A stretch of DNA of 45,203 nucleotides, from the UHGV virus genome UHGV-0169311; one strand, 5' to 3'. The notes under the pieces were generated by a model. The model was not told where the DNA came from and did not search any database. It worked only from the letters and a program-made list of their open reading frames with translations. Source of the stretch: a virus. Position numbers and translations under genes: made by a program. Shown piece after piece: positions 10,657 through 29,928 of this stretch (its first letter is position 1; each line of letters starts with the position of its first letter).

Positions 10657-10740
10657 CCGGTTCAAAAATGGCGAAAGCCGCGGTGCTCGAACACCAACGG
10701 CTTTCAGGTGCAAAAACAGTGCGTAATTGCGGAGAACAGT

Positions 10741-11649
10741 ATGTCAAACACCGCTGAAATAATCAATTTCCCAAATAAAACCGAACAACCGGGAGGTCGT
10801 ATGGCCGACCTGTCGAACGGGTATACCAAGGTCGCTAACGAGATCCAACAGCTTAAGCCTCGCCTGAGACTGTCAGGCCGGGAATGGCAATGTTTTGAGG
10901 CGGTGATCTGGCTTACCTACGGCTGGAACAAGAAACAGGACCGCGTGACAAATACGGTTATTGCCGAGCTTACGGGCCTGAGCGATACGCATGTATCGGA
11001 CGCGCTTAAGTCTCTCGCAGAACGCAAAATCATCTTTTCACAGAAGCAGGGCATGATGAAAATCGTCGGTGTAAACACTGACCTTTCAGCATGGATTTTA
11101 GACAAACCGGAAACGGGAAGAAAATTCCCGAAAACGGGAAAATCCTTCCCGAAATCAGGAATAACCTTCCCGAAAACGGTAGACACCCAATACAAGAACA
11201 AGAACAGTATTAAAAGATCTTCGTCCGAGAATTCTGACGAATCCTCTGACGCACGTCTGAAGAAATTTTTATCAACTCATCCTGAAGCTGCGGTCTACAC
11301 ACCATCCGGTGCGAAGTGGGGCTCTGCTGAAGACCTCGAGACAGCTAAGTGGATTTCCTCCAGGGTGAAGCTGATTAACCCAACCTGCAAAGCCCCGGAC
11401 ATGACCTCCTGGTCTAACACTGTTCGCCTGATGCGCCAGATAGACAACCGGTCGCACCAGGACATCTGCGCGCTGTATGACTGGGCTAGCAAACACCACT
11501 TCTGGCAGACCAACATCCTGAGTCCCGAAAGCCTGCGTAAGCAGTGGGACAAGCTGACAATGCAGCGTAACGCCGGAGGTGAGCAGCGCGCTGTCAAGCC
11601 AGATCTGGACTTCAACAACACTGACTGGGCCTATGGGGTGATCCGATGA
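10741..11649 (+). CDS. O: Replication initiation protein O
   Basis: Start MSNTAEIINFPNK parallels lambda O MTNTAKILNF; TYGWNKKQDRVT motif; contains internal iterons. Confidence 0.8.
   Translation: MSNTAEIINFPNKTEQPGGRMADLSNGYTKVANEIQQLKPRLRLSGREWQCFEAVIWLTYGWNKKQDRVTNTVIAELTGLSDTHVSDALKSLAERKIIFSQKQGMMKIVGVNTDLSAWILDKPETGRKFPKTGKSFPKSGITFPKTVDTQYKNKNSIKRSSSENSDESSDARLKKFLSTHPEAAVYTPSGAKWGSAEDLETAKWISSRVKLINPTCKAPDMTSWSNTVRLMRQIDNRSHQDICALYDWASKHHFWQTNILSPESLRKQWDKLTMQRNAGGEQRAVKPDLDFNNTDWAYGVIR
11104..11182. repeat. Origin iterons: four ~16-bp repeats (TTCCCGAAAACGGGAA-like) at 21-bp spacing inside the O gene
   Basis: Copies at 11104, 11125, 11146, 11167; each is an imperfect palindrome; an A-rich tract follows. 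Analogous to ori-lambda within O. Confidence 0.6.
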
Positions 11650-12335
11650 AATCTCTTGCAGAGCAGATGCGTAACCACGACCGCGAGCAGATGAGCCGCA
11701 TGGCCCATAACCTGCCAGAGCAGTACCAGGAGTGCGCGCCGGTCGAGCAGGTGGCGCAGGTATTCAACAAGCTGTTCAACGAGCTGCGCGCCGCGTTCCC
11801 GGCCAGCATGGCGAACTTCCGCACCCAGGAAGACCTGAACGAATTCCGCCGTCAGTGGCTGCTGGCGTTTCAGGAGAACGGGATCCACACCATGGCTCAG
11901 GTCGATGCCGGCATGCACATTGCCCGCCGCCAGGAGCGCCCATTCCTGCCGTCGCCGGGCCAGTTCGTCGCCTGGTGCAAGCAGAGCGGCGGCGCGCTGG
12001 GCGTCAACGTTGACCAGGTGATCGCCGAATACTGGGACTGGCGTAACCGCTCGTTCGAATTCATCTCCAGCGAGCAATTTCCATGGTCGCAGCCGGTCAT
12101 GTACCACATTTGCGTAGAATTGCGCCACCGCAGCACCGAGCGCCAGTTAACGCATGGTGAACTGGCACGCGAGGCAGGCGATCTGCTGGACATGTGGGAA
12201 AGGCGCGTCACCGAGGGTAAGCCAGTGCCGCCGGTACGCCGGGCTATTGCCGCACCAGCTGCCGAGCAAGGGCCGACGCCGATCCAGCTGCTGCTGGCCA
12301 AGTACAACCGCAACAAGTCGAACGGGATGGTGTGA
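11646..12335 (+). CDS. P: Replication protein P (DnaB helicase loader)
   Basis: Strong colinear similarity to lambda P (MK..AEQM.N.DREQM ... RPFLPSPGQFVAWC) from memory. Confidence 0.85.
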   Translation: MKSLAEQMRNHDREQMSRMAHNLPEQYQECAPVEQVAQVFNKLFNELRAAFPASMANFRTQEDLNEFRRQWLLAFQENGIHTMAQVDAGMHIARRQERPFLPSPGQFVAWCKQSGGALGVNVDQVIAEYWDWRNRSFEFISSEQFPWSQPVMYHICVELRHRSTERQLTHGELAREAGDLLDMWERRVTEGKPVPPVRRAIAAPAAEQGPTPIQLLLAKYNRNKSNGMV

Positions 12336-12336
12336 C

Positions 12337-12681
12337 ATGAACATAACAATCCGTGAGCAGGTGCTGGCAGCCCTGCGCAACAACCCAGGGTTGAACAACG
12401 CCAAACTGGCAGGGCTTATCGGCATGGACACCAAAAAGATATCCGGAACGGTGAGCACGCTGCTGGCAGACGGCCTGATCCGCTGCGAAGGAAAATACGG
12501 CCAGCGCCTTTACAGCCTGACCAGCTACGGAATGCGCTTCGCCCCTGACACGATACCTGGCATGAAGCAGGGTAAGTCGAAGTTAATTCAGCGGACGGAC
12601 ACAAACGTGATCTGCCAGGAGTGCCGCAACAGCGCGGCGATGAGAAGGGTATTGATGGTTTGGGGGAGGGTAGGGGTATGA
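12337..12681 (+). CDS. Hypothetical protein (possible winged-helix)
   Basis: ATG at 12337, 1 nt after the P stop; track ORF 12154..12681 is its in-frame upstream extension inside P. Confidence 0.5.
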   Translation: MNITIREQVLAALRNNPGLNNAKLAGLIGMDTKKISGTVSTLLADGLIRCEGKYGQRLYSLTSYGMRFAPDTIPGMKQGKSKLIQRTDTNVICQECRNSAAMRRVLMVWGRVGV

Positions 12682-27512: not shown

Positions 27513-28538
27513 ATGTCCGTTTACACCACTGCCCAACTGCTGGCGGTCAATGAGAAGAAATTCAAATTCGATCCGCTTTTCCTGCGTATCTTTTTCCGCG
27601 AAACCTATCCCTTCAGTACAGAGAAGGTTTACCTGTCGCAAATTCCTGGCCTGGTCAATATGGCGCTTTACGTCTCGCCGATTGTCTCCGGCAAAGTGAT
27701 CCGCTCCCGTGGCGGCAGCACGTCTGAATTCACGCCGGGTTATGTGAAGCCGAAACACGAAGTTAACCCACTGATGACTCTCCGCCGCCTGCCGGATGAG
27801 GATCCGCAGAATCTCGCTGACCCGGTCTATCGCCGTCGCCGCATTATCCTTCAGAACATGAAGGATGAAGAGCTGGCGATTGCTCAGGTCGAAGAGAAAC
27901 AGGCTGTTTCGGCGGTGCTCAGCGGTAAATACACCATGACCGGGGAAGCGTTCGAGCCTGTTGAAGTCGATATGGGCCGCAGCGCTGGTAACAACATTGT
28001 CCAGGCCGGTGCGGCTGCATGGTCAACCCGCGACAAAGAAACGTATGACCCGACCGATGACATTGAAGCCTACGCGCTCAACGCCAGCGGTGTGGTCAAC
28101 ATCATTGTGTTCGATCCGAAAGGCTGGGCGCTGTTCCGTTCCTTCAAGGCTGTTGAGAAGAAGCTGGATACGCGTCGTGGTTCTAACTCTGAGCTGGAAA
28201 CTGCCGTGAAAGACCTGGGTATGGCTGTTTCATACAAGGGGATGTTTGGCGATGTGGCCATCGTGGTGTACTCCGGCCAGTACGTCGAAAACGACGTCAA
28301 AAAGAATTATCTGCCGGACCTGACAATGGTGCTGGGGAATACCCAGGCTCGTGGCCTGCGTACCTATGGCTGCATTCTTGATGCTGATGCCCAGCGCGAA
28401 GGTATCAATGCCTCGACACGCTACCCGAAAAACTGGGTGCAGTCGGGGGATCCGGCGCGCGAATTCACCATGATTCAGTCAGCTCCGCTGATGCTGCTGC
28501 CAGACCCTGACGCATTCGTCTCCGTCAAACTGGCATAA
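27513..28538 (+). CDS. E: Major capsid protein
   Basis: 341 aa, near-identical N-terminus to lambda gpE (MS.YTTAQLLA.NE.KFKFDPLFLR). Confidence 0.95.
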   Translation: MSVYTTAQLLAVNEKKFKFDPLFLRIFFRETYPFSTEKVYLSQIPGLVNMALYVSPIVSGKVIRSRGGSTSEFTPGYVKPKHEVNPLMTLRRLPDEDPQNLADPVYRRRRIILQNMKDEELAIAQVEEKQAVSAVLSGKYTMTGEAFEPVEVDMGRSAGNNIVQAGAAAWSTRDKETYDPTDDIEAYALNASGVVNIIVFDPKGWALFRSFKAVEKKLDTRRGSNSELETAVKDLGMAVSYKGMFGDVAIVVYSGQYVENDVKKNYLPDLTMVLGNTQARGLRTYGCILDADAQREGINASTRYPKNWVQSGDPAREFTMIQSAPLMLLPDPDAFVSVKLA

Positions 28539-28583
28539 CTTCCCCCAGTGGCCCTGTCGGGCCACCTTTCTGGAGTATTTCCC

Positions 28584-29000
28584 ATGACAGAAAAAGAAAA
28601 GCTGGTCGCCCGCCTGAATGAACTTGGGACCCAGCTTAACCGCGAGGTCAGTACCAGCGGCACCATTCAGGAACTGACGATGCGTATTGCTGAGCTTGAA
28701 GAGGAACTGGATGGCAATGCCGGGTCAGTTGACGGTGAAAACGGCGTGCAGAATGCTTCCGACAGCACCGACAGCACCGACAGCACCGACAACAATGTTG
28801 CTAACGTGGCAAAAGTAAAAACGGAATCGGCCACAACGGGTGACCTGGTATCAGTAGAAACGCTGGCCACCCTGCATATTGACGCTCTGCATGCCACGCG
28901 TAACGAGCCGGTATCTATCGTAGAGCCTGGTGTGATTATCCGCGTATCTGAACAGGATGCCGACGACTTGATCGCAAAGGGGCTGGCTTTCGAAGTCTGA
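28584..29000 (+). CDS. FI: DNA packaging protein FI
   Basis: Start MTEKEKLVARL (track ORF starts upstream at 28548); similar to lambda gpFI at both termini, with a variable acidic/Ser-Thr linker. Confidence 0.8.
   Translation: MTEKEKLVARLNELGTQLNREVSTSGTIQELTMRIAELEEELDGNAGSVDGENGVQNASDSTDSTDSTDNNVANVAKVKTESATTGDLVSVETLATLHIDALHATRNEPVSIVEPGVIIRVSEQDADDLIAKGLAFEV
28761..28790 (+). repeat. 9-bp tandem repeat (GACAGCACC) x3.3 in the FI linker
   Basis: gacagcaccgacagcaccgacagcaccgac encodes DSTDSTDSTD. Confidence 0.85.
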
Positions 29001-29010
29001 AGGGGGCCAC

Positions 29011-29364
29011 ATGGCTGATTTCGATAATCTCTTTGACGAGGCCATGTCGCGAGCTGATAGCGCTATCCGTGGTGTGATGGGCACAGAGGCAAAGGTGATG
29101 TCAGGCGCTTTGTCAGGTGCCACCCTGGTCGGTGTATTCGATGATCCAGAAAATATCGGATATGCCGGTGCCGGGATTCGTGTTGAAGGAACCAGCCCGA
29201 CCCTGTTTGTGGAAACCGCCACTGTCAGGCAGCTGCAGCGTATGGACACGCTGACGATTAACGGTCGGCAATTCTGGGTTGAACGTATTGGTCCGGATGA
29301 CTGTGGCTCCTGTCATATCTGTCTGGGTAACGGCTCTCCACCTGCATCTTCGCGTCGCCGTTAA
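29011..29364 (+). CDS. FII: Head-tail joining protein FII
   Basis: Colinear with lambda gpFII (MADFDNLFD ...). Confidence 0.9.
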   Translation: MADFDNLFDEAMSRADSAIRGVMGTEAKVMSGALSGATLVGVFDDPENIGYAGAGIRVEGTSPTLFVETATVRQLQRMDTLTINGRQFWVERIGPDDCGSCHICLGNGSPPASSRRR

Positions 29365-29373
29365 GGAGCGCAT

Positions 29374-29928
29374 ATGTCCATAAAAGGCCTTGAACAGGCC
29401 ATAGAAAACCTTAACAGCATCAGCAAAACGGCTGTTCCGCGGGCATCGGCGCAGGCCGTTAACCGCGTGGCAAACCGGGCCGTCAGCCGCAGCGTGGCAG
29501 TCGTATCAAAAGATACGCGCGTACCGCGAAAACTGGTAAAGCAACGCGCCAGGGTGAAGCGTGCGACGGTCAATAGACCTCGTGCACTTATCCGGGTAAA
29601 CCGGGGAAATTTACCGGCCATTAAACTCGGTACCGCAAGCGTGCGACTTTCCCGCAGAAAACGGGACAAGAAAGGGGCCAACAGCGTTCTGCGCATAGGG
29701 CCATTTCGTTTTCCGGGCGGCTTTATCCAGCAACTTAAAAATGGTCGCTGGCATGTCATGAGGCGGACTTCAAAACCTCGTTACCCCATTGAAGTGGTCA
29801 GCATCCCGCTGGCAGCTCCATTAACTACGGCATTTAAAGAAGAACTGCCGAAGCTCATGGAGTCAGATATGCCCAAAGAGCTCCGGGCATCCCTTACCAA
29901 CCAACTCAGGTTAATTCTGACACGATGA
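29374..29928 (+). CDS. Z: Minor tail protein Z
   Basis: Colinear with lambda gpZ (M.IKGLEQA.ENL..ISKTAVP ...). Confidence 0.9.
   Translation: MSIKGLEQAIENLNSISKTAVPRASAQAVNRVANRAVSRSVAVVSKDTRVPRKLVKQRARVKRATVNRPRALIRVNRGNLPAIKLGTASVRLSRRKRDKKGANSVLRIGPFRFPGGFIQQLKNGRWHVMRRTSKPRYPIEVVSIPLAAPLTTAFKEELPKLMESDMPKELRASLTNQLRLILTR

Follow-up and report, generated by a model that had tools for sequence, protein, structure and literature searches.

A variable-number 9-bp tandem repeat in the linker-coding segment of the lambdoid DNA-packaging gene FI

The gene encoding DNA-packaging protein FI in the virus genome UHGV-0169311 contains a perfect 9-bp tandem array that is in frame, lies within the interdomain linker of the protein, and differs in copy number between relatives. 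We consider this array probably to be a coding minisatellite (VNTR) of near-neutral effect, in which whole 9-bp units are gained or lost by slippage or short-homology recombination and are tolerated in a disordered linker.

The FI gene and its surroundings

The window, meaning the whole stretch of 45,203 nucleotides that was analysed, is a mEp237/HK225/phi80-like lambdoid prophage. Its head module has the gene order E-FI-FII-Z, which is that of lambda, and is formed of the following genes.

27513-28538, + strand: major capsid protein E gene (PF03864, E=9.8e-65), the upstream neighbour of FI
28584-29000, + strand: FI gene, 138 aa plus stop, encoding a DNA-packaging chaperone homologous to lambda gpFI
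29011-29364, + strand: FII head-tail joining gene (PF05354, E=1.7e-15), the downstream neighbour of FI
29374-29928: Z gene (PF06763)

The FI protein gave a full-length match to Pfam Packaging_FI (PF14000; E=3.2e-51, 173.6 bits against a cut-off of 27), with residues 3-135 covering profile positions 1-131 of 131. Likewise, the identical protein WP_000136479.1 is annotated as gpFI or 'DNA-packaging protein FI' in E. coli 97.3, and the gene carries the latter annotation in every relative that was fetched. Together with the lambda gene order, this bears out the original prediction, which had named the gene FI. At the initiation of packaging gpFI acts as a bridge from the capsid to the terminase-DNA complex (PMC13595911), and by analogy with the lambda literature the FI protein of the window may also act in packaging and in stimulation of the terminase-prohead step (PMC13595911).

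A simple terminator and promoter scan around FI found nothing above shuffle expectation. Between E and FI there is a hairpin at 28548-28565 (GTGGCCC-tgtc-GGGCCAC, then CTTTCT), which was missed by the terminator scan because its T-run is short, and a rho-independent terminator is annotated at the equivalent position in both HK225 and N15.

A perfect in-frame array encodes Asp-Ser-Thr repeats in the FI linker

Using Tandem Repeats Finder we identified a perfect period-9 array at 28759-28791 on the + strand (3.7 copies, 100% matches, 0 indels, score 66), which reads cc GACAGCACC GACAGCACC GACAGCACC GACA and is therefore made of three whole units with partial units on either side. The coordinates first given for the repeat, 28761-28790, are exactly its in-frame portion of three units plus GAC, with perfect periodicity running 2 nt further to the left and 1 nt further to the right. 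With the FI ATG at 28584, (28761-28584) mod 3 = 0, which places the array in frame with Asp-Ser-Thr as the unit, and the frame check recovered the expected peptide DSTDSTDSTD as FI residues 60-69. With the base composition of the window, a 33-nt perfect period-9 run is expected ~2e-10 times by chance in 45 kb, which rules out a chance repeat, and the array is by far the longest lag-run of the window, with 24 matched bases vs 11 for the next independent run. A wrong frame or a non-coding location was also ruled out, as the array is in frame inside the Pfam-confirmed FI ORF. An antisense ORF at 28667-28897 (76 aa, containing 'LSVLSVLSV') was unsupported and was taken to be a by-product of the repeat.

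We divided the FI protein into three parts, with a second, degenerate duplication inside the linker.

28584-28718, + strand: FI N-terminal helical domain, residues 1-45, conserved, with helices at residues 3-24 and 27-45 in a low-confidence AF2 model
28719-28832, + strand: FI linker, residues 46-83, of polar and acidic character and low conservation
28794-28811, + strand: degenerate second 9-bp duplication AATGTTGCT/AACGTGGCA (NVANVA, residues 71-76), directly 3' of the DST array
28833-28997, + strand: FI C-terminal domain, residues 84-138, a homologue of the C-domain solved for lambda gpFI

Residues 84-135 aligned to residues 7-58 of PDB 2LSM_A (phmmer, E=1.9e-9), and the AlphaFold single-sequence model, which is of low confidence (mean pLDDT 58), showed the two N-terminal helices, with secondary structure absent from residues 46-87 and low pLDDT in the linker. 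Comparing 54 unique homologues with window FI, identity was 0.76-0.91 over residues 1-40 and 0.75-0.96 over residues 91-138 and dipped to 0.42-0.67 at residues 41-90, to which indels were confined, with alignment gaps piling up at residues 61-70. The array sits between the N-terminal helices and the 2LSM-like C-domain, within this low-conservation, gap-rich stretch; the conservation dip, the gaps and the domain borders thus place it in a non-conserved inter-domain linker, as had been proposed. Homology with lambda gpFI, the low-confidence model and the conservation pattern suggest that the linker of window FI is disordered, and a passage of PMC10968229 cites the gpFI linker as a functional disordered linker (citing Popovic et al. 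2012). The adjacent NVANVA duplication displayed no length variation in the relatives examined and looks like an old, decayed repeat.

Copy number differs between relatives by whole units

The site had been proposed to be length-variable, and we compared repeat number across related prophages. A megablast of window positions 28500-29060 against 5,426 complete E. coli genomes matched 35 genomes, with matched spans of 552 bp (2 genomes), 561 bp (7 genomes, 5 + 2 phi80-like), 570 bp (20 genomes), 579 bp (4 genomes) and 588 bp (1 genome), which differ by multiples of 9 only. Representative relatives were fetched and their array sequences read, beyond the spans, and in these all array differences were whole GACAGCACC units. 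Alleles of 2, 3, 4, 5 and 6 units were found in E. coli prophages, with 2 units in mEp237, 3 in HK225, 3 in phi80, 5 in N15 and 8 in Enterobacter phage MStein-2023a. Across 47 repeat-bearing loci, drawn from the E. coli prophages, mEp237, HK225, phi80, N15, the Enterobacter phage and IMG/VR contigs, there were 1 (2 loci), 2 (9), 3 (12), 4 (11), 5 (8), 6 (4) and 8 (1) units. The IMG/VR contigs provided further loci with known alleles as well as three mixed arrays, and one contig stops after 10 units, which is a lower bound, with a second contig from the same draft genome starting inside the array. The number of whole units therefore ranged from 1 to 8, with at least 10 at one contig end. Unit number was thus not invariant and often differed on identical flanks, in agreement with the original prediction.

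A sister clade (IMG/VR L033, L034 and L036-L046) has arrays of 1-5 GGCAGCACC units, encoding Gly-Ser-Thr (GST), at the same position in the FI linker. The FI ORF was intact in every allele seen, at 132-153 aa, and all length variation in the family maps to the linker, which is 40-61 aa long in steps of 3. As a control we examined a repeat-free Enterobacter-type clade (~20 loci), in which FI is constant at 137 aa with a 45-aa linker, notwithstanding many linker substitutions; length variation is therefore limited to FI homologues that carry the repeat. In addition, a divergent FI homologue in L052 (IMGVR_UViG_3300036846_000232) has TDT x3, a tripeptide repeat of another kind, near this point of the linker, which suggests that repeats may arise recurrently in the FI linker.

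Arrays of 2-6 GACAGCACC units also occur outside FI, in the unrelated IMG/VR contigs L090, L095, L097, L100, L106, L113, L116 and L117. In L090, L097, L100 and L106 the frame is open through a low-complexity protein, and in L095, L113, L116 and L117 the corresponding frame has stop codons on the flanks of the array. These look like separate, independent instances of one simple unit.

The array changes faster than its flanks and its units are homogeneous

Direct Hamming comparison identified 34 locus pairs in which the 2.4-kb flanks are identical and copy number differs. Within an 18-locus cluster with ≤5 flank differences we found alleles of 2, 3, 4 and 5 units, and within a second cluster, with 0-1 flank differences, alleles of 4, 5 and 6. 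Over 4 kb, mEp237 (2 units) and ECONIH4 (5 units) differ by 0 substitutions. Among the genomes compared, RefSeq gives D, E, FII, Z and U the same protein accessions, and FI alone receives a different one. The presence of different alleles on identical flanks means that the array changes much faster than surrounding point substitutions accumulate, and the sequences indicate independent changes of the array on two backgrounds or more. None-the-less, seven isolates of lineage 2020S05-013-* all had the 570-bp span, corresponding to 4 units (from spans only, the array sequences being unread), and this single span argues against hypermutability of the array over very short times.

Units are also highly uniform within arrays, with 165 of 172 matching the majority unit of their own array, and this is against a background in which FI genes are only ~85% identical between clades. 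Variant units sit in adjacent blocks, such as GGCAGCATC x2 in L033, and likewise in the mixed array of L034. This combination of homogeneity and blockwise variants is the pattern expected of ongoing local duplication and deletion. Furthermore, DST and GST units are one A/G difference apart, yet the arrays are internally homogeneous, which points to concerted evolution.

Origin of the polymorphism

Among E. coli short tandem repeats, those of tens of bp change predominantly by slippage that is independent of RecA. From this established behaviour, the most likely route to the FI alleles would be slipped-strand mispairing, in which the nascent strand misaligns on the perfectly repeated template during replication and whole 9-bp units are gained or lost. 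Each change would add or remove one Asp-Ser-Thr tripeptide, and length changes would always stay in frame because the unit is 9 bp. The linker, probably only a flexible tether joining the N-terminal domain to the capsid-binding C-terminal domain, appears to tolerate unit changes, which would accumulate as near-neutral polymorphism. A phase-variation switch was ruled out, as the 9-bp unit is divisible by 3 and none of the alleles disrupts the ORF.

That the differing copy numbers are a sequencing or assembly artefact, produced by a mis-assembled repeat, is extremely improbable. Contigs do break within the array in two draft genomes (L099/L103 of IMG genome 2703718696 and L051/L067 of IMG genome 2737471853), where the repeat can disrupt short-read assembly or the samples can be heterogeneous. 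However, normal reads exceed the 18-72 bp of such arrays, the differences are all exact whole units with sequence that is otherwise identical, and the alleles turn up again both in independent complete genomes and in phage genomes of the Sanger era (N15, 5; phi80, 3), a recurrence that excludes assembly artefact. Unequal homologous or short-homology recombination, either RecA-dependent or acting through an exonuclease/RecT-like system of the prophage, would give products identical to those of slippage, and we regard it as a less likely source of the polymorphism that still deserves consideration. An exonuclease and a RecT-like annealing protein are annotated in the phage family, annealing-type recombination would find sufficient homology in arrays of 27-90 bp, and lambdoid phages are mosaic, with flanks that differ in large blocks between clusters. 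The blockwise duplicated variant units in L033 and L034 are compatible with either mechanism, but what is established for short tandem repeats in E. coli favours slippage.

An alternative to near-neutrality is that linker length is selected, with unit changes serving as a tuning knob that adjusts how far FI can reach between terminase-DNA and prohead, or that fits FI to capsid or terminase variants or to hosts. The repeat is retained and perfectly homogeneous where FI genes are ~85% identical (window vs phi80 and N15), TDT x3 arose at the same linker position in the divergent L052, and alleles are bounded, mostly at 2-6 units. Neutral turnover predicts unit homogeneity equally well, however, and many homologues manage with a fixed-length, repeat-free linker. 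To examine co-adaptation we compared RefSeq protein accessions in 18-kb regions, and found TerS and TerL with identical accessions alongside 2 vs 3 units (H24 vs H1), and TerS, portal and capsid with identical accessions alongside 3 vs 5 units (H1 vs H26). Copy number thus varies where TerS, TerL, portal, capsid and FII are each identical, and no co-variation with terminase or capsid was found in these regions. This independence from the known partner proteins favours a near-neutral, tolerated polymorphism over co-adaptation, and we judge selected linker length to be unlikely. Copy number therefore appears to be near-neutral, as far as sequence comparison can indicate, and the clustering of alleles at 2-6 units could be due to mutational bias or weak selection. 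An even less likely reading is that the DST/GST array is kept by selection as a mutable, homogeneous repeat, such that the population always holds FI variants of differing tether length. Were this so, packaging initiation would re-optimise quickly in different hosts or after the frequent mosaic exchanges that bring in other terminase or capsid modules, and the array would amount to a contingency-like locus within a chaperone of virion assembly.

Comparison with known systems

Window FI resembles lambda gpFI (PF14000; 2LSM) in its full-length profile match, its position between E and FII and its C-domain, which can be aligned at residues 84-135, and also in its three-part layout of an N-terminal helical region, a non-conserved polar and acidic linker, and a small C-domain. 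It differs in that the linker of the window clade bears the perfect DST-coding 9-bp array of variable copy number, whereas the linker of lambda gpFI is not known to have a tandem repeat. The FI proteins (gp9) of N15, phi80, HK225 and mEp237 have the GACAGCACC array at the same position in the same gene. They differ from window FI in copy number (window, 3), with ordinary substitutions in addition in N15 and phi80, and mEp237 FI is the window protein minus one DST unit and otherwise identical.

Coding VNTRs of bacteria and phages display slipped-strand length polymorphism and are used in MLVA typing. The FI array shares with these its perfect head-to-tail units, which are a multiple of 3 bp and homogenised, its whole-unit polymorphism between near-identical genomes, and its placement in a protein segment that is of low complexity and structurally tolerant. 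Unlike them it is short (up to ~10 units) and lies in a phage morphogenesis gene. Repeat instability is also common to phase-variable contingency loci, but the FI array is in frame and cannot switch the gene off, and so does not belong to this class. None of the papers searched mentions the DSTDSTDST repeat, and a search on the mEp237/HK225 genome papers gave nothing relevant. We have therefore counted the array as a further case of a familiar type, a textbook coding VNTR; it is real but ordinary, with little import for biology at large.

Within these bounds, the array offers a clean natural example of a gpFI linker that tolerates 40-61 residues, and probably more, with partner proteins unchanged, and this tolerance supports a 'flexible tether' model of FI. 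As a fast-evolving marker it could serve E. coli typing by separating mEp237/HK225/phi80/N15-type prophages that are identical in other respects. Short-read assemblies can also break at the array, and protein clustering at 90% identity hides its alleles.

Other observations in the window and its relatives

Elsewhere in the window a 21-bp tandem repeat (CCGAAAACGGGAAAAACCTTC, x3.5) is present at 11107-11179, inside an ORF at 10708-11649 on the + strand that encodes a lambda-O-like replication initiator. The corresponding region of the O-like protein shows FPKTGKS-like heptad repeats, and by analogy with lambda the CCGAAAACGGGAAAAACCTTC repeats are probably origin iterons embedded in the O gene.

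In relatives of the window tail genes (L085-L088, at ~12030-12360), the 'phage tail assembly protein T' of RefSeq is annotated as an incomplete pseudogene after gpG in 4 of 4 cases. Rather than real decay, these calls presumably reflect mis-annotation of the programmed -1 frameshift G/GT product.
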